64,000 nucleotides of DNA from a bacterium (GCA_963693055.1 OY843751.1:4608001-4672000); one strand, 5' to 3'. Numbered from the stretch's first letter, positions 12,631 to 35,543 are shown. Numbers and translations: made by a program. The notes: a model not told the origin generated them from the letters alone.

Positions 12631-13263
12631 ATGAAAAGCAAAAACTATGTTACATTTTTTGGTATGCTAGTGCTTGTTTGTCAATTATACGCTGAATCTA
12701 ATCGGTTCTCAATGGGAATAAATCTAGGGGATTTATTTTCCAATTATGATCTTGGCAGCGAGATGGCAAACACACTGTACTCACAGATTCAGTACCCGGT
12801 ACTTTACATGTCCTTAACAGAGTCCAAAATCAAAATAGAACCTGAATTCAGTTATTGGAGATATTCTGATGATAGCAACAATGGCATGTACAAGTCTACG
12901 ATGCATTATTCTGTGATTCATTTAGGAATTGGCCTGTCTCCCATCATCTCGCAGACCCATAAAACGACAACCTATATAGGGGCAAAAATAGGATTAGACA
13001 AGCTTTACTTTGAGAATAAATCCAATTACAGTTATGGCTCCGAAACTTCCATCTCCAGCAGGACCGACTTGCTCATAGGGCCTTATTTGGGTATCGAATA
13101 TATGTTAAGAGACAAACTCAGCCTGGGGACTGAATTCCAAATAATGACAACCATACTCGGGAATGAAGACAATACAGGCAGCAGCAATGCAGAAAATTAC
13201 GACAACAAATCAGGATATTTTATAAATAGCGAAGCATTATTATTCTTGAAATGGCATTTTTAA
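12631..13263 (+). CDS. Outer-membrane beta-barrel protein (paralog 1)
   Basis: Signal peptide; IEPEFSYWRYS, RTD...GP.LG.EY...LSLG.EFQ; terminal aromatic residue. Confidence 0.75.
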   Translation: MKSKNYVTFFGMLVLVCQLYAESNRFSMGINLGDLFSNYDLGSEMANTLYSQIQYPVLYMSLTESKIKIEPEFSYWRYSDDSNNGMYKSTMHYSVIHLGIGLSPIISQTHKTTTYIGAKIGLDKLYFENKSNYSYGSETSISSRTDLLIGPYLGIEYMLRDKLSLGTEFQIMTTILGNEDNTGSSNAENYDNKSGYFINSEALLFLKWHF

Positions 13264-13334
13264 AACTCAATAACCTGTTAAAATTCATTTGGTAATATAA
13301 CTATTAACAATATTTACAATATCATGAGGGTAAA

Positions 13335-13970
13335 ATGAAAAACATCACAATTGTTTTATTCGTGTTTTTAGCAGCAACACAATCTTTTGCAGAATCCAAT
13401 AAATATGCAGTGGGTATGAACCTCGTAGAACTCTTTCAAGAATTTGACTTCCCAAACCAGTATGAGAGTGAAATATATGACTATATCAAATTCCCGATTC
13501 TTTATGGAACAGTCATAACAAACAACTTTCGAATTGAGCCCGAATTCAGTTTCTGGAGATATTCTCACAAGGACGATTTTTCTTCTGAATCTTATTCTCA
13601 GGAAAACACCTTGTCAATTTTTCATCTGGGAATAGGTTTTTCAAAGATCCTCAAAAACAATGAAAAAAGTAATACTTATCTAGGAATCAAGTTGGGCATT
13701 AACAGCATGTCATCAACATCAAAGTTTAACGGTGAAGCAAGTAGTAATAAAACCGAAACCAAAAGGACCGATTTTTACACAGGGCCGGCATTGGGGACAG
13801 AATACTTTCTTACAGATCAACTAAGTCTGGGATCTGAATTTCAATTCCTGATAACATTTCTGGGTAAAGATAAAGTAGAGCAAAGTAACCAACAAACCAA
13901 CAACAGACCCGATGAATCCGGCTCATTATCAAAAAGCAAGTTACTATTATATTTACGCTTATATTTATAA
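13335..13970 (+). CDS. Outer-membrane beta-barrel protein (paralog 2)
   Basis: Shares AESN, IEPEFS.WRYS, RTD and LSLG.EFQ with the upstream gene. Confidence 0.75.
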   Translation: MKNITIVLFVFLAATQSFAESNKYAVGMNLVELFQEFDFPNQYESEIYDYIKFPILYGTVITNNFRIEPEFSFWRYSHKDDFSSESYSQENTLSIFHLGIGFSKILKNNEKSNTYLGIKLGINSMSSTSKFNGEASSNKTETKRTDFYTGPALGTEYFLTDQLSLGSEFQFLITFLGKDKVEQSNQQTNNRPDESGSLSKSKLLLYLRLYL

Positions 13971-14280: not shown

Positions 14281-15627
14281 TTGTATTCAAAAGTATTAAA
14301 AAGGACCCAGCATATCATTCAATCACAAAACAATCCAAGAGGATATATTTTTAAAGCAGCCTTCAAGTTACATGCCAATAGATATTCCAGCCATTTAAAT
14401 GAATTGCAAGAGTACCATATAAATCCTGCAAAGATGGAGTCAAAAACTGCTAAAAAATTGACAGCCCTACTTGAACATGCTGTGCAAACTACGCCTTTTT
14501 ACACCCATTTTGGATTAAAACCAGAATTGAATCATTTTCCGGTTTTGACAAAATCGATCCTGAAAACACAGTATAACGATTTTATTTCGAACGCATTTAA
14601 TCAGGCCCATCTTGAAAAAACAAGCACCAGCGGATCCACAGGAACACCTTTTGTATTTTATATCACACCGAACAAATTATGGCGTCGCACTACAGAAATG
14701 CTGTTTTACAATCAAATTGCCGGATACCTGCCGGGCATGCCATTTGCCTAGGTTCGTACAGATAAATTCAGCAGGTTTTATAAATTCATCCACAATGCGG
14801 TAATCATTAATCCGTCATATATTAATCAGGAATGGCTAAAAAAACAGAGAGAACTGCTTATAACAAAAAAGACTGAATTCCTTGTCGGTTGGCCCAGCGT
14901 TTTATCTCAAATTGCCTCCTATTGTAATGCTAGAGGAGACAATCAAGATACCTTTCATCTTAAAGGTATTGTCACCAGTGCAGAACCATTAACCAGGCAG
15001 CTCAGAAGCCAGATATCAGCCGTTTTGTGTGGCAATCTATATGATAGATACGCTACACAGGAACTCGGTTTAGTAGCACATGAATGTAAAATCTGCAACA
15101 GTTACCACTTGAATACCGCTTCACATTATTTCGAATTCCTGAAACTCGACAATAATGAACCAGCAGAACCCAATGAACCCGCCAGATTGATTGTCACAGA
15201 TCTCTATTCCCATGCAATGCCGCTCATCCGATACGAGATTGGTGATATCGTTACACGTAACACCCAGACAGATAAATGCCCAGGCGCCTTGAAAGTAAAA
15301 AGCATTCAAGGATGCGTGAATGATGTTATCTATAATCCCAACGGTACCATTGTCAACTGGGCTGTTATTGAAGATATTTTAAAAACAGCAGACAATTTTA
15401 TCAGCGATGTGAGTCAATACCAGTTTGTTCAGGAATCTATAGATCAATACAGCTTAAAGGTTATCAGCAAAAATCACAGATCATCAAAAACAGATCTGGA
15501 AAACAAGTTACTGCACCTGTTAGGTCCGCAAGCCAAAGCCAGAATAGAGTTTGTTCAAACAATCCCCAAGCTTCCATCAGGCAAATGCCCGGTAGTGTTG
15601 AACCAGATGACACGCAAATTGGCCTGA
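14281..15627 (+). pseudogene. Phenylacetate-CoA-ligase/CapK-family adenylate-forming enzyme interrupted by one in-frame TAG (14749-14751)
   Basis: TSTSGSTGTP P-loop; the same frame continues without a stop after the TAG (VRTDK...LVGWPS...TSAEPL...YDRYATQELG...MPLIRYEIGD...LPSGK). Confidence 0.8.
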
Positions 15628-15801
15628 ACTATTCATCAAAATATCCCCTGTTTTCCCCTATAACCCGACACCCTGCACCAAGGCAGGAAAAAACATATTG
15701 CTTTTGTGAATGTATCTGTTAATATTGATAACGGTAACGATGCTAACTTTCCACAACGTATTACAATCCATACAGTATTCAATACAACCTCAGGAGTAAA
15801 A

Positions 15802-16617
15802 ATGAAAACCCGATTACTGCCAAATCAAATTTTCAAAATCCTATTTCCCCTCACAATTCTGGTTCTGCTGATATCTGTATTTATCGGTTGTGCGCCCCAG
15901 GAACCGGTTTCACAAAATGATTATTACCAGATCAAAGTCTACCAATTGAGCAGCCAAGCTCAAATGGATCAGATAGAAAGTTATTTAAAAAACGCTTATA
16001 TACCGGCCTTGCACCGCGCGGGAATCCCTCAAGTGGGCGTATTCAAACCTAGAGAACAAGAATCCGAAACCAGCATGCAAGTTTGGGTTTGGTTGCCTTT
16101 TCATTCTTTTGAACAGTTTGAAGGACTTGAACAGATACTGGCAAATGATTCCCAGTATCAAACAGATGGTGCGGATTATATCAATGCGGCTTATGACAAT
16201 CCGCCATATGACCGTATCGAAACTACATTTTTAAAAGCATTTGCCGGAATGCCGCACTATGGCAGTTTTAGCTATGACAACCCGGTTCAGGACAGAGTCT
16301 ATGAACTTCGAAGCTACGAGTCTGCAACCGAAAAAGCCCACATGCTCAAAGTAGACATGTTTAACAGTGGCGAGATTGATATTTTTAAAAACATCGGTGC
16401 CAATCCCCTCTTTTTTGCCAAGGTACTTTCAGGTGCAACCATGCCAAACCTGATGTACATGACAACCTATGCCGACACACTGGCTCGCAAAAACACCTGG
16501 AGCTCCTTTAGCAACCACCCGGATTGGAAAGCCATGAAACAAATAGACAAATACAAAAATACTGTTTCCAAACATGTTCACAATTATCTCTATCCCACAG
16601 AATACTCGGATATTTAA
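15802..16617 (+). CDS. NIPSNAP-family lipoprotein (copy 1)
   Basis: AGGAG SD before ATG 15802; lipobox FIGC; RVYELRSYES, MPNLMYMT, LYPTEYSDI. Confidence 0.88.
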   Translation: MKTRLLPNQIFKILFPLTILVLLISVFIGCAPQEPVSQNDYYQIKVYQLSSQAQMDQIESYLKNAYIPALHRAGIPQVGVFKPREQESETSMQVWVWLPFHSFEQFEGLEQILANDSQYQTDGADYINAAYDNPPYDRIETTFLKAFAGMPHYGSFSYDNPVQDRVYELRSYESATEKAHMLKVDMFNSGEIDIFKNIGANPLFFAKVLSGATMPNLMYMTTYADTLARKNTWSSFSNHPDWKAMKQIDKYKNTVSKHVHNYLYPTEYSDI

Positions 16618-16625
16618 AATTTTTC

Positions 16626-16655
16626 CAGGCAGGGTAAATTTAAATCCCCTGCCTG
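16626..16655 (+). terminator. Hairpin after NIPSNAP copy 1
   Basis: CAGGCAGGG...CCCTGCCTG. Confidence 0.55.
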
Positions 16656-16834
16656 TGTTCCATTTCATGTCTTAATAACACTCTTGTTACACTAATTTTC
16701 AAGATCCAATACAAAAAATCATTGCTTTTAAGGGTGTATCTATTAATTTAATAAATATTCAACACCAGCAAAATCTTTTCCATCATTTTATAAACCGGGT
16801 AACTTGCTTTTCAATTTTAACTTCAGGAGTAACA

Positions 16835-17653
16835 ATGAAAAACAAATTGCTAACAAAACGTTTCTTGAACACTCTACTGGTCATAACAACTCTGGGCCTT
16901 TTATTATCAATGTTTACAGGTTGTACAACAACTCAGAAAGTAGTATCTGATCGTGACTATTACCAGCTCAAAATTTATCAACTCAGCAGTCAAGGACAAA
17001 TGGACCAGGTTGACAATTATTTAAAAACCGCCTATATACCGGCCTTGCATCGTGCGGGAATCCCTCAAGTAGGCGTATTTAAACCCAGACAACAGGAATC
17101 CGAAACCAGCATGCAGATCTGGGTTTGGGTACCATTCAAATCATTAGATCAGTTCAAGGGGCTGGATTTCATTCTTGCTAAAGACGGACAATATCAATCA
17201 GATGGCGACGCTTATATCAATGCCGCTCCGGATAAAGCACCCTATGACCGTATTGAAAGCATCCTGTTACTGGCTTTTTCAGCACAACCGCATTTTGGCA
17301 CATTTTCTTACGACAATCCGGTCAAAGACAGAATTTACGAACTGAGAAGCTATGAATCTCCAACCGAGAAAAAACATGTCAACAAGGTAGACATGTTTAA
17401 CAATGGCGAAGTCCAAACCTTTAACGCTATTGGTTCCAATCCCCTGTTTTTTGGTCAGGTTATTTCCGGGCCATGTATGCCCAACCTGATGTACATGACC
17501 ACATACAAAGACAGTGCATCTCATGCGGTACAGTGGAACAAATTCAGAACTCATCCCGACTGGCTGGCAATGAAAGACCTGCCCGAGTACGCGGACAATG
17601 TTTCTAAAAACACAAAATACTATCTATACCCCACCGAATATTCTGACATCTAG
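16835..17653 (+). CDS. NIPSNAP-family lipoprotein (copy 2)
   Basis: Close paralog of copy 1; lipobox FTGC; identical AYIPALHRAGIPQVGVFKPR and YPTEYSDI. Confidence 0.88.
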   Translation: MKNKLLTKRFLNTLLVITTLGLLLSMFTGCTTTQKVVSDRDYYQLKIYQLSSQGQMDQVDNYLKTAYIPALHRAGIPQVGVFKPRQQESETSMQIWVWVPFKSLDQFKGLDFILAKDGQYQSDGDAYINAAPDKAPYDRIESILLLAFSAQPHFGTFSYDNPVKDRIYELRSYESPTEKKHVNKVDMFNNGEVQTFNAIGSNPLFFGQVISGPCMPNLMYMTTYKDSASHAVQWNKFRTHPDWLAMKDLPEYADNVSKNTKYYLYPTEYSDI

Positions 17654-20344: not shown

Positions 20345-22282
20345 TTATTTCAATAACAGCATACGAATTATTTCTTGTTGTCCATTTACTGACAATACCG
20401 CAGTATAAATTCCACTCGAAACAGAATTTCCTGCTCTGTCTATCCCTCGCCAGTCTGTTGTATACGTTCCTGCTGCTAATGCTTCCGAAACAAGCGTTGT
20501 CACTTTTCTTCCTGTAACATCAAAAATATCCAATGTAATAAAGGTATTTTGAGAAATTGTATATTGAATAACAGTTCCCGCATTAAATGGATTTGGGTAA
20601 TTGTTAAACAATTTCCACCCATCCGGATTCATATATTTTTCATCAATTGTAGTATTTGTGGAATTGTCAACACTAGCAGAGACGCCGGCAATTTCAACAG
20701 GAGCTTTATCCATAGCTTGATAAAATACGGAAAAACCTCCAACCTTTTCAGTATCATAAGCATTCAAATCCGCAACAAAGCGAGGTTCCAGGGTCTGGTA
20801 ATACATAGTCACTGAAATATTGTAATTCGTCACCGTATTATCAACATGCATCTTGTATGTAATATAATCACTCCCGGCTCCTTCCTGTCCATCATCATAA
20901 ATATTAAAATTATTATCAGTTAATGCATTTCCACAGATGGCAATATCATTATAATGTTCAACTGTGCTCATGAATCCTGTGGGTGGAATACGATTATCTT
21001 TGGCGTATTCTGCTCCCCGCAGCAAGGTATAGGTAACATCCCCATTTATATCTTTCATAATTGCCTGGTAAATTTGTACCTGATTTGGTTGTCTAATCAC
21101 ATCATGATGAGGTTCATAACCGTCATCAATGCCTGACAGCTCACCATTTTCATCCGGTTTCCCGGATTCGAAAACAATATTTTCATTATGATCTTGAATG
21201 ACAACATGCAACCATGCCCGGCGACTGGGAAATCCGGTGGGGAACTTGTGCCCTGCAAGATTTTCAACAAGCACCCGGATTACCAGGGTATCATCATCAA
21301 TTCGGGCTGTTGCAGATAAATTAACAGACTGCTGCTGTAACAGCCTTTTTGATTTACTCAAAGTACTGTCAAAATTTTGTATTGTTGCCGTTGCGCCAAG
21401 AACATCCAGATTATCTCTTATCAAGGTATTCATAAATATATTACCACCCACAAAATCATGCCCCCAGATGGGTGAACGCTTTGTTGTAAGTGACGGAGGC
21501 CTTGTTGAGATGAGCATCGGTTCTTCTGTAACCGGCATATGACAGGTCTGACATTCAACAGACTCGCCGGGAAAGCTGCTGTTTTCCCATTCCAGATAAG
21601 GTGTCTGTTCCGGGAAATAACCAGCCACCCGGCCTGCGTCATCCACAAAAGGTGTATACAAGGTATGACATGTGGCACATAATTCTGACTTGTGTACATG
21701 CTCAGAATATAAAGGGGTATACCCTGTCATATTAAACATCGGCATTGTTGTTGGATTAGTAAAAGGGCCAAATATGGAATGCGCATTGGTAATATCGTAC
21801 CCCCCGGTAAAACTGGTCTCTGTACCTAAATTGGAATTTTGGATTTGATGACAGAGCGTGCAGCTCACTCCATCCATACTCAAGGGATCAGACAAACCTT
21901 CATCAAATGTAAATCCCTCTGCCCTTATAATAACTGATTCTGTACGTCCCATTGGCATATGACAGGTTGTGCATTTATCCTCAATCACCGCTTGCAATGC
22001 GGGATGGGCTGCAACCTCGGCACTGACTTTTGCCTGCCAGAGTGGGTCTCGTGAAGCATTGGCCATCATGGTTGAGCGCCAAAACGTCGTGGGTGATACA
22101 TCATTTCCACTCTGTGTTGTAAATGCATTTCCATCAAAAATATGACATTGGGCGCAATTACCAGAGCCGGAAAAATGTGTAGAAGTAGAAATTGGCAAAG
22201 CTTGAGAATAAATTGAAAGCGAAAAGAAAAATAAAATTGAAAGAATAATGGGCAGGATTTTGAAAAAATGCATTTTTTTCAT
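20345..22282 (-). CDS. Secreted pentaheme c-type cytochrome with FlgD/T9SS-type CTD
   Basis: Signal peptide; five CxxCH (CAQCH, CTTCH, CTLCH, CATCH, CQTCH); GHKFPTG; NYPNPFN...WRG...SSGIY...MLLLK. Confidence 0.88.
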   Translation of the reverse strand: MKKMHFFKILPIILSILFFFSLSIYSQALPISTSTHFSGSGNCAQCHIFDGNAFTTQSGNDVSPTTFWRSTMMANASRDPLWQAKVSAEVAAHPALQAVIEDKCTTCHMPMGRTESVIIRAEGFTFDEGLSDPLSMDGVSCTLCHQIQNSNLGTETSFTGGYDITNAHSIFGPFTNPTTMPMFNMTGYTPLYSEHVHKSELCATCHTLYTPFVDDAGRVAGYFPEQTPYLEWENSSFPGESVECQTCHMPVTEEPMLISTRPPSLTTKRSPIWGHDFVGGNIFMNTLIRDNLDVLGATATIQNFDSTLSKSKRLLQQQSVNLSATARIDDDTLVIRVLVENLAGHKFPTGFPSRRAWLHVVIQDHNENIVFESGKPDENGELSGIDDGYEPHHDVIRQPNQVQIYQAIMKDINGDVTYTLLRGAEYAKDNRIPPTGFMSTVEHYNDIAICGNALTDNNFNIYDDGQEGAGSDYITYKMHVDNTVTNYNISVTMYYQTLEPRFVADLNAYDTEKVGGFSVFYQAMDKAPVEIAGVSASVDNSTNTTIDEKYMNPDGWKLFNNYPNPFNAGTVIQYTISQNTFITLDIFDVTGRKVTTLVSEALAAGTYTTDWRGIDRAGNSVSSGIYTAVLSVNGQQEIIRMLLLK

Positions 22283-22675: not shown

Positions 22676-23356
22676 ATGCTTAAGGAATCGACAAGGCCCA
22701 CACTTTTTAAAATTTTGTATATACTATTGTTTTCCCTGGCCGTGTTCTCATTTGTCAATTGCAGCGACGATGATCTCGTTGGCGATTGGACAGAGCTGTC
22801 TGATCTCGATGGAAACGAATGGACCAAAATCATCAGCATTGAGGGTAGTAAGCGTAAAGATGCGGTAGCCTTTGTTGTTGATGGTTTAGGTTATGTGTGC
22901 ACAGGAATAGCAAATGGTTCATATGAAGATGACTTTTGGGCGTATGATCCTCAGGCAGGTAACTGGGTCAAAAAACGTGATATTTATAATGTCTCTGACA
23001 ACGAATACGATGATGATTATACCAACATTATTGGTACCAACAAAGTTGCTTTTTCTGTAAATGGCAAAGGTTATGTTGCTACCGGTGGTCTGAGTTCAAC
23101 CGGTACTGCTGTTTGGGAATATAATCCCGAAACAGATTTATGGACTCAAAAAACCTCACTTGAAGCCACCTCACGTCTCGATGCAGTTGGCTTCACAATT
23201 GGTGATATTGGTTACATAGCCACAGGTAAAGACGGCAGTGCTGAGGATGATGACTTTGACGACCTGTGGGGATTCAAGCCCGGAGCTACACAGGTAGATC
23301 TGAATAAAATTATTGTCGTAGACAATAGCAGTTCTATGCTTATCGTCAATAATTAA
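22676..23356 (+). CDS. Kelch-repeat lipoprotein, apparently with an internal deletion
   Basis: Lipobox VNC followed by SDDD; kelch blades (AVAF...GYV.TG...DFWAYDP); only ~3 blades, jumping from SDLDG straight to NEWTK. Confidence 0.7.
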   Translation: MLKESTRPTLFKILYILLFSLAVFSFVNCSDDDLVGDWTELSDLDGNEWTKIISIEGSKRKDAVAFVVDGLGYVCTGIANGSYEDDFWAYDPQAGNWVKKRDIYNVSDNEYDDDYTNIIGTNKVAFSVNGKGYVATGGLSSTGTAVWEYNPETDLWTQKTSLEATSRLDAVGFTIGDIGYIATGKDGSAEDDDFDDLWGFKPGATQVDLNKIIVVDNSSSMLIVNN

Positions 23357-23438
23357 AATCTGGCCGGCCTGTGCAATCAATACACACAGGCCCCGGTTCC
23401 AGATCAAAAAAACCGATTCATTCTAAAATGAGACTTTT

Positions 23439-24681
23439 ATGAATATAAAGATAAAACAGGTACCCGGTTTTGCAGCGATAGTTTATATTCTGCATACCTT
23501 GATATTGTTCAGTTCCGGATTTTTCTTTCCTGTTCCAAAGATTCGGATACCTCTATGGGTTCAGATTATGTCAATTCACAAACCGGGTACCAGTTGATTG
23601 ACACATTGTCTGTAAACCTCTCCACAATCATCATAGATACACTCAAGGCTCCAAGCTCGGGCAGCATTCTTTTGGGACACCATAGTGATGAAACTTTTGG
23701 AGATGTTTCTTGCAGCAGTTTTTTTCAATTGGGAATTCCGGATACATTGAATATTGAAACGACAGACACATATGACTCACTTGCATTGGTGCTTACCTAC
23801 AACAAATATGCTTATGGAGACACTACACTTTTACAGAAAATTTTGGTCCACCAATTAACCGAGGTTATAGATGAAAAAGACTCGCTCATTACCAATCAAA
23901 CCACTTACGAGTATAATCCCAATCCTATTGGCTCAATTGTCTACACACCTTCTCCTAATAATCCTGTAGACACATTGGTAATAAGAATAGACGATGCAAT
24001 TGGTCGTGATTTGTACACAAAAATCATTCAGGAAAATTCTATTGTTACCAATATAAATGATTTCATCGACTATTTTAAAGGACTCGCACTCATTGTTGAT
24101 GATGCATACAAAGGCTGCATTGTAGGATTTGAAGGCGATGTAGGAAAAGTCAAGCTATCGTTTTTCACTACCCGAAAGGCGTATGATACGGAACACCTGG
24201 TTCATGAATTCAGTCTTTACAATACCTCAAAGCAATTCAATCATATTACACATGATTTTAGTACTACACAATTGAGCGCACTGATTAATCAGAAAAACCC
24301 GCTTCCAAGTACTGAGACCAATGGTCTGGCGTATTTGTATGGTGGAATTGGTCTTGCTATCCGGGTAGATTATCCATCACTGGGAGACTTCTATACCTTG
24401 ATCGCGGAAAGATACTAAAAGCAACACTCTCACTTGCCCCCCTAAAGGGCAGTTATAATGAATATGACCTGCCATCACAGATATATATTTATGAGGCAGA
24501 TATTCTCAACAACTATGATTATACCGGCAATCATTATTCTTCTTACCAGTATTTAGACAATCTCTATCATGAGGAAACCTATTATACTTTTGATTTAACC
24601 GGTTTTATCACTGATAAAGTATCCGATTCTTATATTGATCCTGACAGAGGTCAATTCTGCGGCTGTAAACATAGGTATTAG
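23439..24681 (+). pseudogene. DUF4270-family lipoprotein with two -1 frameshifts and a 3' truncation
   Basis: One base added at T-run 23520-23524 restores signal and lipobox (FLSC) in frame with 23555; a second shift near 24390 continues GKILKATLSLAP...YTFDLTGFI; ILLGH.SDE.FG, YDSL.LVL.Y motifs. Confidence 0.7.
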
Positions 24682-30797: not shown

Positions 30798-33700
30798 TTA
30801 TCTTGCAAGCACCATCTTTTTAACCGATTCAAAACTGTTCGTTGTTAAACGATAAAAATAGACACCATTCCCTACACTATGCCCCAATACATCCGTACCG
30901 TCCCATTGTACCGCATAATGTCCCGCTGATTGCTCTCTGTCAATCAGGCTGATCACATGCTGTCCCAATACATTATATACATCCAGATTCACATGGGTAT
31001 TTTTCGCAATGGAATATTCAATCTGTGTCTGCGGATTAAATGGATTGGGGAAATTCTGCAACAATTCAAAAGATTCAGGTAATTGAGCAGATTGTGTATC
31101 AACTATTCCAGGCAATGGCGGTGTTTCGCCCCATGTTTGCGCAAAAGATTTTCTTAAAACCGAAGGTCTGAACCTCTCTTTATCACCAAGAGAGGATTGT
31201 GTTGAAATGGTAATCTCGCAATTTTCCTGTACCGCAAACCAATACGCCTTGCCAGGTTCAATAACATCAGTAAAAGTATAAGCAAAACGGACAGGGTCCC
31301 AGGCCCAAATATCTGCGACTGCGCCTGCCGGTTCTACTTGAATTTGAGAAAGTGGGACCGGTTCCGAAACTGAACCCAGTAAATTCCATCCTGTCTCACA
31401 CTGCACTGTTAAAGCATGAATAGGTACACCCGGCACTACCAGCGTACCTGCCTGCTCTGGCTTTACCCAAAATCCACTGACACTGTCAGTTTTATCGTTT
31501 TTAATAAATAATAAATTTTCGGTATCCAGCGTCAACCAGTCATTAACCTTCGGAAACAAAGCTTCAATATCATAACTCTCACAATATAACGGTAGTGAGA
31601 TCAACTGCCATTCAGGGATATCAAAATTATATTGAAATTCTATACATCCCCCGCCACCGGTAGCGCCCATATCATTGACAAGGCCTCCTAATCCAGGTAA
31701 AAAAGTTGTATTATCATAAACGGGATCCGGTACATCGTAATAAACCGGTGAGGGGTTTCCGGCATCTATACAGGGAGAAAAGAGCGATAAATGGTAATCC
31801 AAAGAATCCGCATAATCAGGATCATCAGCAATATTACCGAGGTTCCACAAAAGGTGATTATCGGGGGGGTCTTCAAAAAATATCCAATCCTCTGTTGTAT
31901 CTATACAACTGTAATTAAATTCAATCTCGTTAGCAACCGTTCCCCTGTCCATAAAAAAATTATGCCCGTAACGCCCCTCACTGCTACCGGCAATACAGTT
32001 CATCAATGACAACCGGGTATTTGAATCCAGATACACATTCCCGCCACTGCCAATAGTCGAATTATGTGTCAAAGTCACATTTACCAAAATCGGGGCTGAA
32101 CCATTGTGCATGGAAACTGCACCGCCATCATAACGCCCAAAATTTCTTGCAATCAACACCTGGTGCATTTGTGGAGAGGATGCATCCAGATAAAAGGCAC
32201 CACCGTATCGAGCTGTATTACTAATAAATTGACTCGATTGTATTTCCGGCATAGATTTAACACAGTATACAGCACCGCCAAATTGCCCTGTATTGTTATA
32301 AAAAATACAATTGCTGATTAACGGAAAGGATTTGTCAAGATATAACGCTCCTGCCCGGGCCCGCTCCGTATCACTCTCTCCATTCACATCACGGACTGCA
32401 CAATATATCAGCGCATCATCACCACCGCTCTCGATAAAGCTCAATCCTCCCCATGTTGTATTGCTGTCTATAGCACAAAAATGTACCGAATCTATTGCAG
32501 TACCTTTGCTTATTAGCCTGGCATTCTTTCCAATGGTGAACGTATAGTCTCCGGTAAATTCAACGCGTACCCCGGCCTCAATTTCAAGGGTATGCATAGC
32601 GGGAATCTCTATATCCGAATAGATTCGATAAGGCTGCCCCGCAGCTGTCCAGTTACCCCAAACCCATGCAGTGTCAACAACCGTTCCTTTTTGTACGCTT
32701 GCTAAAAGTGGAACTGACTTGCACAACCCATTATTCATTTGAACAAAAAGCGTATCCATATACATTTGATTATAGGTACTGTTGGTTTCAAAACCTATTA
32801 ACAGGCTGTCTATTGCACCTGAAACAAGTGTATTTGCAGACAGATCGGATAAAATTGTAAAATATGTTGAATCAGCCAGATGGATTGAACCGATTTCTAT
32901 TGTTTGATTCGAGCCATTTTTCAAATACAACCATGCTTGTATAAACTCAAAAGGATCAACCAATCCCATATCCAATGGATCCGGAACCAATGCCAATTCG
33001 AGCCCAGTACTTGTAGCTGCAAGCCTGGTTCCACCAAAAGCGCCCATATTTATGCGAAATCCATGCGGAAAGGGTTCATCCCCCACATCATCATTCGGGT
33101 CACCGGCATCAATACCGGCAGAGTTCTCTTCAAGTCTAAAATCATTTTCCACAGCATCCACAAATCCGGGATCATCAAACATTAAACTCATACTCTCAAC
33201 TCTGCTGTCATCAAGCGACCAGTCGTTGACCAAAGTATCCAGACAAGTATAACGTAATTGAACATCATTATCATTGTTCATCCACAATCCGACACCCGTG
33301 TCAACAGAATTATTATTTATTATAGAATTCCTTATAATGACAGCATTTTCCCCACTGAGGCTCAATAACCCCCTAACTGAACAGGAATTGCCATAAATTG
33401 TACAATTGACAAGATTTAAAGATGCTCCGGCTTGCAAATCTGCAATTGCGCCATAATATGCATTATTATTTATTATCAGACAGTTCCTTAATATCGGGGC
33501 CGATTCTTGTCCGCTAACATATAAAGTACCAATATCTCCACTATTGTGCTCAATTATACTGTTTTCAATCGTTGCATGTGATGCGTTAAACGCAACAGCA
33601 CCACCATAAATCGCGACATTGCTTGCAATTCTTGAATGAGAAATAAAGGGATGTGAACCATTTATATTCAATGCTCCCCCTTTGCCCATCCATTCAACTT

Positions 33701-35543
33701 TTGACCTGCCATCCTTTATAATGCAATAATGCAGCGAATCATCATCACCACTATCATTGAATGTTATACCATACCAGCCATTATCAGAATTGTCAGCCCG
33801 AAACCGTACCGAATCATTTTCAGAACCGTTTACCAAAAGTTGAGCATTCTCTCCCACCTCAAAATATAAAGGCTCCATAAAAACCACATCAACACCCGGT
33901 TCAATAGTCAGTACAGTATTGGTTTCAACCGCAACTGACTGAAAAATATAATATGGGGAACCATTCTGTGTCCATGTACCCCGTATCTGCCCACTGTTTA
34001 CAACTGTACCTTGTCCGGGTACCCCATATCCTACCAGAGATACCTGCTGCCAGCGGTGTTGATTAGAATACTCGATCATCAAACTGCCATCAAACCGACC
34101 GACACTGTCCGGAGTACATCTTATCCAAACTGAGAAACGGGTTTTCGGCATCAATACTTTACCCAAAATCGGTTTGATAAAGGCACTATCAAATGCTGCA
34201 GAAAAGTTAGGACTGGGAACGATCTGCCCTACATACAGCATTTGCTCACTATCATTAAACAAGGAAATTTCAAAAGACTCGGAAGTTTCATTTACCCTTG
34301 CAGGACCAATAATGGCAACGCTATCAGACAAAACCACAGGAGACACCCATTCATCTCCTACCCGGATATCTACCGTACCCGTTTGCACCACATCATATCC
34401 GGCTCCCATATATTCCGGAATATGATACCACATATCGGCTATGGCTTCCGGTTGGCTGGCACCCCAGCCAAAATTAACATGAAAAAAACCGTTTGAATTA
34501 AAACCATCCACCAAAATAGAATGCCCGGCAACCGGAATAGATTGATTTATGGACAAATGCGCAGGAAGTGCATTCATCATATTTTCTTTCAAATGCTGAT
34601 ACAACTTTTCTCCGGGATCCATATATTCTGCACTCTCGTAACCAAAACGTTGTTTCAAGATACGCGGCAGAATCCCTGAAAATGTACCCGAGTTGCCTGT
34701 AGCAAAATCCATATACAACAATTCAGCGCTTACTGCATTCAATGCTGCAATTTCTTCATTATCCAACATCGAATCAGCCGACCAGGCTTGTCTAATAAGA
34801 TCAAGATATCCGTTCAATGTCTGAAAAGAAGGAAAATCCAGTTCCAGGCTGTCCTGATCGATGGCAACTCCGCGGGTATCGGTTACGTATCGATCATCAC
34901 GTCCCAGAGATACCTCACCAATATTTTGATGATAGTTTAAAAGCTGCGCCAAAACAACACCCACACAACCAACAGGTGTCCGTTGTAATGTTATAGGATC
35001 CAAGGGGCAAAAACGGTTATACGGGGCACCCTGCTGCCAGGTGGTACTCACCCATCCACCGGTTACGGTAGTTCCGGCTTCAGGCCATTGCAGAACCGCG
35101 GAATCATTTACCACTCCGGGAGCTAACAATTTATCCCAAAGTTTATGATTTTGAGATATAATTACAGGTGCAAGTAATGATCTGTTTTGTAATCGCTCTT
35201 CAAGATCATATTGTAAAAATCGGTATACATCACTGAAAGAAAAATCAACAGGTTGGGTCTGTCTGATATAAGCAATAACAGGTTCTATATCAGTATCATT
35301 CGATAGAATAGCAAAACCACCATCTGCAAAGTCGGCAATATACCCCACATCATCAATTGCAAATATTTTTTGCAGTTCCAGACTTTTTTTCGACTCGCGG
35401 GATTGGAAGGGGGTAACAGCAATATTCTTTTTATAAAACTGCATTGCAGCAGAACCGGCTTGCTCTATACTAACCGGTTCTGACAAGATGATACCTGACA
35501 GGCCGAAAACAAGGATGAAAAATATTTTAAATAATCGACTCAT
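30798..35543 (-). CDS. C10 (streptopain-family) cysteine protease with duplicated Ig plus beta-helix modules and FlgD/T9SS-type CTD
   Basis: WQQGAPYNRFCP, PVGCVG (Cys), GHSILVDG, HVNFGWG; repeated GGA.../IDAG.P/MGA.GG; QNFPNPFNPQT...WDG...GVYFY. Confidence 0.88.
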   Translation of the reverse strand: MSRLFKIFFILVFGLSGIILSEPVSIEQAGSAAMQFYKKNIAVTPFQSRESKKSLELQKIFAIDDVGYIADFADGGFAILSNDTDIEPVIAYIRQTQPVDFSFSDVYRFLQYDLEERLQNRSLLAPVIISQNHKLWDKLLAPGVVNDSAVLQWPEAGTTVTGGWVSTTWQQGAPYNRFCPLDPITLQRTPVGCVGVVLAQLLNYHQNIGEVSLGRDDRYVTDTRGVAIDQDSLELDFPSFQTLNGYLDLIRQAWSADSMLDNEEIAALNAVSAELLYMDFATGNSGTFSGILPRILKQRFGYESAEYMDPGEKLYQHLKENMMNALPAHLSINQSIPVAGHSILVDGFNSNGFFHVNFGWGASQPEAIADMWYHIPEYMGAGYDVVQTGTVDIRVGDEWVSPVVLSDSVAIIGPARVNETSESFEISLFNDSEQMLYVGQIVPSPNFSAAFDSAFIKPILGKVLMPKTRFSVWIRCTPDSVGRFDGSLMIEYSNQHRWQQVSLVGYGVPGQGTVVNSGQIRGTWTQNGSPYYIFQSVAVETNTVLTIEPGVDVVFMEPLYFEVGENAQLLVNGSENDSVRFRADNSDNGWYGITFNDSGDDDSLHYCIIKDGRSKVEWMGKGGALNINGSHPFISHSRIASNVAIYGGAVAFNASHATIENSIIEHNSGDIGTLYVSGQESAPILRNCLIINNNAYYGAIADLQAGASLNLVNCTIYGNSCSVRGLLSLSGENAVIIRNSIINNNSVDTGVGLWMNNDNDVQLRYTCLDTLVNDWSLDDSRVESMSLMFDDPGFVDAVENDFRLEENSAGIDAGDPNDDVGDEPFPHGFRINMGAFGGTRLAATSTGLELALVPDPLDMGLVDPFEFIQAWLYLKNGSNQTIEIGSIHLADSTYFTILSDLSANTLVSGAIDSLLIGFETNSTYNQMYMDTLFVQMNNGLCKSVPLLASVQKGTVVDTAWVWGNWTAAGQPYRIYSDIEIPAMHTLEIEAGVRVEFTGDYTFTIGKNARLISKGTAIDSVHFCAIDSNTTWGGLSFIESGGDDALIYCAVRDVNGESDTERARAGALYLDKSFPLISNCIFYNNTGQFGGAVYCVKSMPEIQSSQFISNTARYGGAFYLDASSPQMHQVLIARNFGRYDGGAVSMHNGSAPILVNVTLTHNSTIGSGGNVYLDSNTRLSLMNCIAGSSEGRYGHNFFMDRGTVANEIEFNYSCIDTTEDWIFFEDPPDNHLLWNLGNIADDPDYADSLDYHLSLFSPCIDAGNPSPVYYDVPDPVYDNTTFLPGLGGLVNDMGATGGGGCIEFQYNFDIPEWQLISLPLYCESYDIEALFPKVNDWLTLDTENLLFIKNDKTDSVSGFWVKPEQAGTLVVPGVPIHALTVQCETGWNLLGSVSEPVPLSQIQVEPAGAVADIWAWDPVRFAYTFTDVIEPGKAYWFAVQENCEITISTQSSLGDKERFRPSVLRKSFAQTWGETPPLPGIVDTQSAQLPESFELLQNFPNPFNPQTQIEYSIAKNTHVNLDVYNVLGQHVISLIDREQSAGHYAVQWDGTDVLGHSVGNGVYFYRLTTNSFESVKKMVLAR

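Follow-up and report, generated by a model that had tools for sequence, protein, structure and literature searches.

A pentaheme PHC-family cytochrome with a type A T9SS C-terminal domain: a candidate exported redox protein from a genome assigned to KSB1

The 64,000-nucleotide stretch of DNA analysed here (the window; OY843751.1:4608001-4672000) encodes, in a single protein, a predicted signal peptide, a five-heme cytochrome core of the PHC family and a type A T9SS C-terminal domain. We consider it quite probable that the holo-protein is exported by a T9SS-like route. Our main reading goes one step further, and in it the exported, folded protein would be a surface redox terminal linking an outside substrate and porin-cytochrome conduits, a proposal for which belief and doubt are evenly balanced; once export is granted, wiring of the protein to a conduit seems rather likely. 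The host genome is closed and consists of a single contig of 6.54 Mb. Judged by the labels on homologues, the host belongs to the phylum KSB1: three KSB1-labelled GTDB loci end in the same residues as the orthologues of the same order or class.

Gene and domain organization

Major features of the gene are summarized in Table 1. The open reading frame contains no internal stops, and the span and strand given in an earlier note on this DNA, made by a model from the sequence, proved exact. The five CxxCH motifs and the GHKFPTG loop listed there are all present, and its Sec signal is borne out by sequence inspection and hydropathy. The N-terminus is basic, then hydrophobic, and reads IYS-QALP at the putative cleavage site; hydropathy over 19 residues has its maximum of 2.3 at residue 6 and does not exceed 0.82 beyond residue 30. 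Judged by inspection, it fits a Sec/SPI signal, with a predicted mature protein that starts at Q27 and lacks a lipobox. The first Cys of the protein is residue 43, and C450 is the only Cys outside the heme motifs. When the protein was shuffled 20,000 times, at least one CxxCH occurred in 110 shuffles with a maximum of two, so the five motifs are not a product of chance. The AF2 model, built from 117 homologues (pLDDT 93.5), has a heme domain, an Ig-like domain that holds the conserved R354, H392 and KDNR (428-431), and a tail that forms its own beta-sandwich behind a flexible linker. The linker is where PorU would be expected to cut.

Table 1. Features of the pentaheme gene; positions are counted from the first letter of the window and residues of the protein are in brackets.
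Feature	Position	Strand	Remarks
Whole gene (645 aa)	20345..22282	-	Signal peptide, pentaheme PHC-family core and type A T9SS C-terminal domain
Sec/SPI signal peptide (1-26)	22205..22282	-	Predicted from sequence and hydropathy; putative cleavage site
Heme motif 1, CAQCH (43-47)	22142..22156	-	Sequence
Heme motif 2, CTTCH (104-108)	21959..21973	-	Counterpart is the catalytic heme of MccSep
Heme motif 3, CTLCH (141-145)	21848..21862	-	Sequence
Heme motif 4, CATCH (202-206)	21665..21679	-	Sequence
Heme motif 5, CQTCH (244-248)	21539..21553	-	Sequence
E225-Q226	21605..21610	-	Near-invariant; E225 probably at the heme-2 Cys position of 5ZE8 and MccSep
GHKFPTGFP loop (344-352)	21227..21253	-	GHKFPTG is 344-350; F351 at the MccSep U325 position
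Ig-like beta-sandwich of PHC core (about 319-540)	20663..21328	-	AF2 model, conservation and fold comparison
Flexible linker (541-555)	20618..20662	-	pLDDT <50 at 545-553; predicted PorU cleavage region
Type A T9SS C-terminal domain (556-645)	20348..20617	-	YPNPFN...GIY...LLLK, with FlgD-like insertion

The neighbouring genes encode GDYXXLXY, DUF2157, YhhN, Kelch and DUF4270 proteins. An operon context was rejected: the pentaheme gene converges on the GDYXXLXY gene with 3 bases between them, and clustering of the best 80 of 571 GTDB loci yielded no conserved neighbour gene in the FCB loci. Promoter and terminator counts at the locus are no higher than chance.

A PHC core with a changed heme 2

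The best structural match of the core is PDB 5ZE8, the low-potential pentaheme cytochrome c552 of Thermochromatium tepidum, with a Foldseek E value of 4.8e-17 (TM 0.71 on the target) and, by VIA, a Z score of 25.4 (rmsd 3.0 A, 351 aligned residues, 23% identity). The heme domain alone also aligns with it (Z 14.0, rmsd 2.8 A, 200 residues), and NrfA-type proteins come next with Z 7-9. The two proteins share the overall fold, five CxxCH motifs, the Ig-like domain and an H-x-x-PTG loop, whereas 5ZE8 has a Cys in G-x3-C-Q-T where the pentaheme protein has Glu, a His in W..S.H where it has Met, and no T9SS tail. According to PMC11976967, the 5ZE8 protein has no assigned function. The core has five CxxCH motifs and, behind them, an Ig-like beta-sandwich that opens with a GH-x-x-P-x-G loop, which makes it a member of the pentaheme PHC family (5ZE8/ExtKL/Gsu2801). 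A search of the ESM Atlas with the core as query returned unnamed clusters only. AvECN (8E5G) and MccSep (9WT8) are absent among the fold matches listed, in a kind of search that cannot exclude a family.

Digel et al. place ExtKL in the PHC family (PMC11976967). This protein of Geobacter sulfurreducens, also named MccSep (PDB 9WT8; NF040886), is a periplasmic polysulfide reductase whose catalytic heme is heme 2, with His/Cys ligation (C239) and a selenocysteine, Sec325; the exchanges C239H, U325A and U325C each strip it of most activity (PMC13510729). It resembles the pentaheme protein in its five hemes, its Ig-like stem and a GH..P.G-x-P loop. A role for the pentaheme protein as such a reductase of polysulfide or selenite, acting after export, would agree with the shared family and loop (hhalign probability 96.2), with the tRNA-Sec of the host genome and with a cluster of rhodanese, barrel and multiheme genes in it, but the residues on which MccSep activity depends are those that are missing. 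F351 aligns with U325 in the profile alignment; none of the 214 full-length cores has Cys or Sec at this position, which is taken by Y, F, I, H, L or V instead; the stretch from heme 4 to heme 5 of the pentaheme protein is free of Cys, and so a heme-2 Cys ligand is missing; and the protein reaches 18.1 bits on NF040886, far under the cut-off of 250. We regard an MccSep-like activity as highly improbable. The pentaheme protein would function like a PHC enzyme whose site has changed and is not an MccSep.

What replaces the MccSep site can be read from conserved residues. The G-x3-C-Q-T of 5ZE8 corresponds to G221-YFP-E225-Q-T, so Glu225 probably takes the place of the heme-2 Cys ligand; this assignment is motif-based because in a MAFFT alignment with MccSep C239 lies two columns off E225. 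E225 is kept in 212 and Q226 in 213 of the 214 full cores, and the set of E225, Q226, R354, H392 and K346 is conserved in 210-213 of them; H345 is invariant or nearly so and H275 near-invariant. A His of MccSep-type proteins, and of one paralogue, is the MAFFT counterpart of M73. M182, which MAFFT aligned with no His, stands at the same distance from a conserved Gly as a His in two paralogues. The two Met residues thus probably replace His ligands, and H195 (186/214) and H392 (213/214) could be spare ligand candidates for these sites. On such sequence comparisons, two hemes would likely be bis-His, two His/Met and the fifth His/Glu or open. His/Met ligation would raise the heme potential above that of low-potential relatives.

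Other kin of 5ZE8 with five hemes and a beta-sandwich are sPHC and lPHC of cable bacteria, Gsu2801, PtdA, which adjoins a porin gene, and AvECN (PMC11976967, bioRxiv 2023.11.21.568154). By description, they are periplasmic or lie in operons, and the passages on them mention no T9SS tail. The family is reportedly kin to the archaeal nanowire AvECN, four of the hemes superposing (PMC11976967), and on this kinship the pentaheme core might polymerise outside the cell once its tail is removed, the tail blocking assembly in the periplasm. We think such a nanowire very unlikely: over the 351 aligned residues the core retains the complete Ig-like domain of the soluble 5ZE8 together with its branched fifth heme, and the active-site-like conservation suits a monomeric or oligomeric enzyme better.

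The C-terminal domain

The tail scores 33.2 bits on TIGR04183 (cut-off 23, residues 562-641) and 32.2 on Pfam FlgD_ig (cut-off 27), which upholds the FlgD/T9SS-like domain of the earlier note; on Pfam Por_Secre_tail (PF18962) it scores 20.4, below the cut-off of 27. Its best fold match is the C-terminal domain of Porphyromonas gingivalis PorU (Z 12.6 and rmsd 1.8 A over 88 residues); FlgD fits less well (Z 9.3 and rmsd 1.9 A over 74 residues), and the mirolase domain is also among the matches. A role as flagellar FlgD was rejected: the match is limited to the last 90 residues, 238 proteins of the genome share it, and the T9SS domains fit the tail better. Among these 238 terminal tails, which include those of peptidases and adhesin-like proteins, the pentaheme tail ranks 176 of 242 with an HMM made from the genome itself. 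This HMM misses short tails of the Bacteroidota type, and 15 of 148 representatives pass it; TIGR04183 is passed by 23 of 37 hand-picked others.

A model of the tail with the best PorV of the genome scores 0.92, against 0.00 for the best control. Of solved complexes, 116 of 157 attain that mark, as do 2 of 215 mismatched pairs. Between runs at least 96% of contacts are the same, with a partner pLDDT of at least 87. The pass shows likeness only and may come from the memory of the model, because similar complexes were probably in its training set (a 75-residue C-terminal domain chain, 8glk_D, surfaced).

Like type A T9SS cargo such as gingipains, PorU and mirolase, the pentaheme protein has a Sec signal and a terminal domain above the TIGR04183 cut-off. 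Unlike them, its passenger is a covalent multiheme cytochrome and its host phylum has no detectable GldM.

Secretion and maturation genes

The earlier note named the lack of a T9SS-like translocon as grounds for refuting its proposal and suggested a check for heme maturation genes; the host genome encodes a translocon and heme-attachment proteins. SprA is found at 661.7 bits (cut-off 200), 22 of 32 PorV-family matches lie above the cut-off, with the best PorV reaching 311 on NF033709 and 242.6 against a cut-off of 250 on NF033710, and there are two PorU and three PF01578 heme-attachment proteins. Across the phylum, SprA is present in 120 of 121 KSB1 genomes and a PorV orthologue in all 41 sampled. 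GldM was found in none of the 121 genomes, and GldN and GldL in neither the host nor its congener, whereas GldL, GldM and GldN were all detected in the positive control, a Bacteroidales genome. TonB/ExbB/ExbD genes that lie 4-6 kb from sprA are candidates for a substitute motor. The Bacteroidales control also encodes SprA and the same cytochrome with a 37-bit tail, so the fusion occurs alongside a complete T9SS as well.

The T9SS transports folded proteins (PMC9251779), and in Bacteroidota the ejection of the PorV-cargo complex depends on the Gld energy chain (PMC12635249). A T9SS without its motor might fail to export, or the tail might just tether the protein at the outer membrane, which would leave a periplasmic carrier. 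The failure to find GldL, GldM and GldN, the periplasmic location of MccSep (PMC13510729), the two tail-less PHC paralogues of the genome and the many tail-less members outside FCB lineages are consistent with such a carrier. They are opposed by the same tail ending the 238 proteins of the genome, peptidases and adhesin-like proteins included, by SprA and PorV being near-universal in KSB1, and by the same fusion occurring where the motor genes are complete. On balance we find a periplasmic carrier improbable and favour export.

Distribution of the tail and other outward signals

The family is large, with 7,227 of 7,999 scored candidates found at E values up to 1e-10, and with 689 clusters at 50% identity when E is limited to 1e-30. 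The tail motif occurs in 113 of the 121 closest proteins. An orthologue of the pentaheme protein is present in 18 of 121 KSB1 genomes; of the 18 non-self KSB1 copies fetched, 16 are tailed, one is cut, and one, a second copy, has no tail.

In a survey of the best 80 of 571 GTDB loci, the tail tracks FCB lineages: 24 of the 26 FCB-labelled loci are tailed and two are cut or broken, while none of the 51 loci with other labels has a tail; two unlabelled loci and one labelled Lentisphaeria are also tailed. On a quick, midpoint-rooted IQ-TREE of 77 rows, from which 4 partial-core loci were left out, the tail changes 3 times, against a shuffled mean of 21.9. One tail-less copy is nested inside a tailed clade, and SprA was not detected in its genome. 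SprA is present in five of five tailed genomes versus one of five tail-less ones; a counter-example is a Gemmatimonas genome that has SprA and a tail-less copy.

Outside the FCB lineages the core carries other attachments. A lipobox pattern is found on the core in 15 of 20 Chloroflexota loci, and other members have a JDVT-CTERM anchor (above its cut-off), a Solibacter C-terminal domain, or Big_9, cadherin, Calx-beta or dockerin domains. The core is fused to a GSDH (PQQ-type) propeller in 3 of 25 scanned proteins. In 9 non-FCB loci among the best 80 of 571, it lies behind a monoheme cytochrome whose C-terminus is barrel-like, a partner that matches PF13557 in one of four scanned cases and was not found in the host genome. 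Numerous non-FCB members bear a plain signal peptide without any tail; therefore the core can function as a periplasmic protein too. Taken together, the core is a mobile module that is addressed outward often, though not always.

Conduits and other tailed cytochromes

The host genome contains 20 open reading frames with at least four CxxCH motifs, and multiheme clusters with 49, with 20/28/10 and with 9/12 hemes, each of which adjoins a barrel-like gene with an aromatic terminal residue. The barrels have no matches in Pfam or NCBIfam, and an ESM Atlas search with barrel 1 returned unnamed clusters only. A multiheme gene adjoins barrel 1 in all 30 fetched loci; adjacency of barrel 2 to cytochromes was inspected at 4 loci.

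The link between the pentaheme protein and these conduits is weak, with carriers modestly enriched for barrels. Barrel 1 is present in 9 of 18 carriers versus 23 of 103 other genomes and barrel 2 in 14 of 18 versus 48 of 103 (Fisher p about 0.02 for both, with related genomes that are not independent). Four carriers have neither barrel with the queries used, and in none of the 18 carrier genomes does the pentaheme gene lie within 20 kb of barrel 2.

A stronger case for a conduit link is made by a nine-heme cytochrome with a T9SS tail, encoded at C1:5112407-5115103. It occurs in 45 of 121 KSB1 genomes and is tailed in all 30 orthologues fetched; it coexists with barrel 2 in 40 of the 45 genomes and lies less than 20 kb from it in 17. 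At one of the four loci inspected, the nine-heme gene is directly upstream of barrel, 14-heme and 6-heme genes. A third tailed cytochrome of the host is a fusion of GSDH and a diheme domain. From these sequences, T9SS export of cytochromes looks like a general feature of KSB1, where it would play the part that the T2SS has for MtrC and OmcA (PMC7096707).

Proposed mechanism

In the mechanism that we propose, the protein would be exported by Sec and lose its signal peptide, as its sequence suggests, and would receive its five hemes in the periplasm, for which the genes are present. PorV would then bind the tail at the SprA translocon, the genes for both being present and the binding having been modelled, and PorU would cut the tail, so that the protein is released or surface-anchored by analogy with type A cargo of Bacteroidota. 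The substrate site would be heme 2, where neither the Cys ligand nor the Sec of MccSep is present and where Glu225 is probably the facing residue. Electrons would travel between this site and a porin-multiheme conduit, whose genes lie elsewhere in the genome, by way of the remaining four hemes, of which M73 and M182 probably make two His/Met. Given the potentials expected of His/Met hemes, a high-potential partner (oxidised metals, O2/H2O2, Fe(II) uptake) would be favoured over polysulfide.

On its own, the pentaheme protein is unable to pass electrons through the outer membrane; it is no membrane-spanning wire. The earlier note saw in it a path to surface redox chemistry different from porin-cytochrome conduits. 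Of this view, T9SS-like export is well supported by computation, through the tail, SprA, PorV and PorU; the opposition to conduits does not, since the genome holds barrel and multiheme clusters and the protein is unable to span the membrane. Like MtrC, which the T2SS exports, it more likely forms the outer end of such conduits than an alternative to them.

A free-standing extracellular enzyme, such as a peroxidase or oxidase with an open heme 2 flanked by Glu225 and Gln226, would dispense with conduits and take its electrons from co-secreted dehydrogenases or outside reductants. A distal Glu/Gln pair occurs in bacterial cytochrome c peroxidases. The near-complete conservation of E225, Q226, R354, H392 and K346 is active-site-like, some cores are fused to a GSDH propeller, the host encodes a tailed GSDH-diheme cytochrome, and the pentaheme gene is unlinked to barrel genes. 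But Q226 is also found in 5ZE8 and may be structural, the Pfam and NCBIfam profiles give no peroxidase family match, and the non-FCB copies in 9 loci follow a cytochrome-barrel gene. We judge the free enzyme unlikely and retain the conduit terminal as the main reading.

A broader reading, which we offer tentatively and doubt somewhat more than we believe, is that in FCB bacteria the T9SS is a general route for surface holo multiheme cytochromes, that KSB1 is electroactive by way of a motor-less T9SS, and that the pentaheme protein has a His/Glu or open catalytic heme. As part of it, at least three unrelated KSB1 families (pentaheme, nine-heme and GSDH-diheme) would leave the cell without GldL, GldM or GldN as conduit terminals. 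If this were true, a large uncultured phylum would be electroactive and the catalytic heme would be new to characterised relatives of the pentaheme protein.

Comparison with known surface cytochromes

Known outer-surface cytochromes are either lipoproteins exported by the T2SS or filaments. If the reading is true, multiheme cytochromes that bear a T9SS tail would represent a further surface route. It raises the questions of whether the T9SS can move a holo-pentaheme of roughly 60 kDa and what powers it in phyla with SprA, PorV and PorU and no detectable Gld motor.

The holo-cytochromes MtrC and OmcA of Shewanella are secreted via the T2SS (PMC7096707). They are probably alike to the pentaheme protein in periplasmic heme attachment, secretion as a folded holo-protein and an outer terminal role, but they have ten hemes rather than five, another fold and T2SS export in place of a T9SS tail. 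The pentaheme protein lacks a lipobox and adjacent porin-cytochrome genes. It scores 25.2 bits on TIGR03507 (MtrC/OmcA type, cut-off 209.3), and no barrel or periplasmic multiheme genes adjoin its gene, as they would in a porin-cytochrome operon.

In the open-access literature we found no description of T9SS-exported cytochromes, going by titles or abstract openings. The words cytochrome, heme and redox never occur in a 2024 review of the T9SS (PMC11205867). By term look-up in three further sources, secretion and FCB terms are absent from PMC11475568, secretion and multiheme terms from the Zhuqueibacterota paper PMC11683472, and the T9SS goes unmentioned in bioRxiv 2025.05.29.656830. The pentaheme protein belongs to a large family with a conserved, changed active site, of which we found no characterised member.

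The combination of CxxCH motifs and a T9SS tail could serve as a simple sequence marker of surface redox proteins across FCB phyla, and screens based on a lipobox or on known porins would likely miss such proteins. Databases already name them "T9SS type A sorting domain-containing protein".

T9SS-tailed multiheme cytochromes in the phylum

The source genome encodes a nine-heme cytochrome with a type IX secretion (T9SS) tail (Table), whose orthologues occur in 45 of the 121 phylum genomes. The tail is present on all 30 orthologues that were fetched, and in 17 genomes a barrel gene lies within 20 kb of the orthologue. This protein is the best candidate for a T9SS-exported counterpart of MtrC, the outer-surface decaheme cytochrome of Shewanella. 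The three barrel and multiheme clusters of the source genome have heme counts of 9/12 (with a rhodanese), 49 and 20/28/10. A GSDH-diheme fusion is a third tailed c-type cytochrome. In another phylum genome, G103, two T9SS-tailed multiheme genes stand in tandem (L213:49-5125), with at least 8 hemes in the fetched part of one and 9 hemes in the other; the pair lies upstream of a 9-heme/rhodanese/barrel/12-heme cluster.

Features of the source genome (C1, its single closed contig), the window and the fetched loci of tail-less relatives
Feature	Location	Strand	
Barrel and multiheme clusters (L089, L090, L091)	C1:1.143-1.148, 2.004-2.009, 3.833-3.840 Mb		
GSDH propeller, SO2930-like diheme cytochrome and T9SS tail, 916 aa (L093)	C1:1644302-1647052	-	
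Nine-heme cytochrome with T9SS tail, 898 aa (L092)	C1:5112407-5115103	+	
Two PHC paralogues without tail	L096:133-1473 and L097:93-1217		
Two small OMP beta-barrel genes in tandem	window 12631-13970	+	
Short ORF pairs	window 14281-15627 and 22676-24418	+	
Two similar genes in tandem, NIPSNAP match in second	window 15706-17653	+	
Peptidase C10 with I69 inhibitor prodomain and T9SS tail, 1581 aa	window 30798-35543	-	

Secretion machinery

In a set of 121 phylum genomes, the source genome and 120 others, the SprA translocon was found in 120 and the motor protein GldM in none, and the PorV carrier was found in 41 of 41; by gene content, the T9SS of this phylum is one without a recognised motor. 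With 22 PorV-family genes above the cut-off genome-wide, and two PorU sortase genes in tandem plus additional PorU-like genes, the source genome has an expanded carrier set. At a distance of 4-6 kb from its sprA are genes resembling TonB, ExbB and ExbD (L095:4150-6154), which may have a link to this T9SS.

Tail-less relatives and other C-terminal ends

The heme-2 ligand position is Lys in one of the two tail-less PHC paralogues and Ile in the other. Next after the L096 paralogue comes a gene of 418 aa that contains a single CxxCH and has a barrel-like end; the library gave no match for it. At L082:4811-5998 and 8 further loci, the gene immediately 5' of a tail-less pentaheme gene encodes a fusion of a monoheme cytochrome with a barrel-like domain (genomes labelled Acidobacteriota, Gemmatimonas, Deltaproteobacteria and Verrucomicrobiota); such pairs may form a two-gene conduit. 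In the Sumerlaeota-labelled members L026 and L033 the C-terminus is a short W-x-x-aromatic tail, which may serve that phylum as a sorting signal.

Sec-type homologues of the polysulfide reductase MccSep, called by an in-frame TGA and a score over the NF040886 cut-off, occur in 4 of 5 Desulfobacterota-type genomes with a Glu-type pentaheme (L119-L122); in these four genomes the two subfamilies coexist.

Within the window, the 14281-15627 ORFs look by eye like pieces of one CoA-ligase-like gene. The 22676-24418 pair, Kelch and DUF4270 genes both under model length, look like fragments of a single gene.
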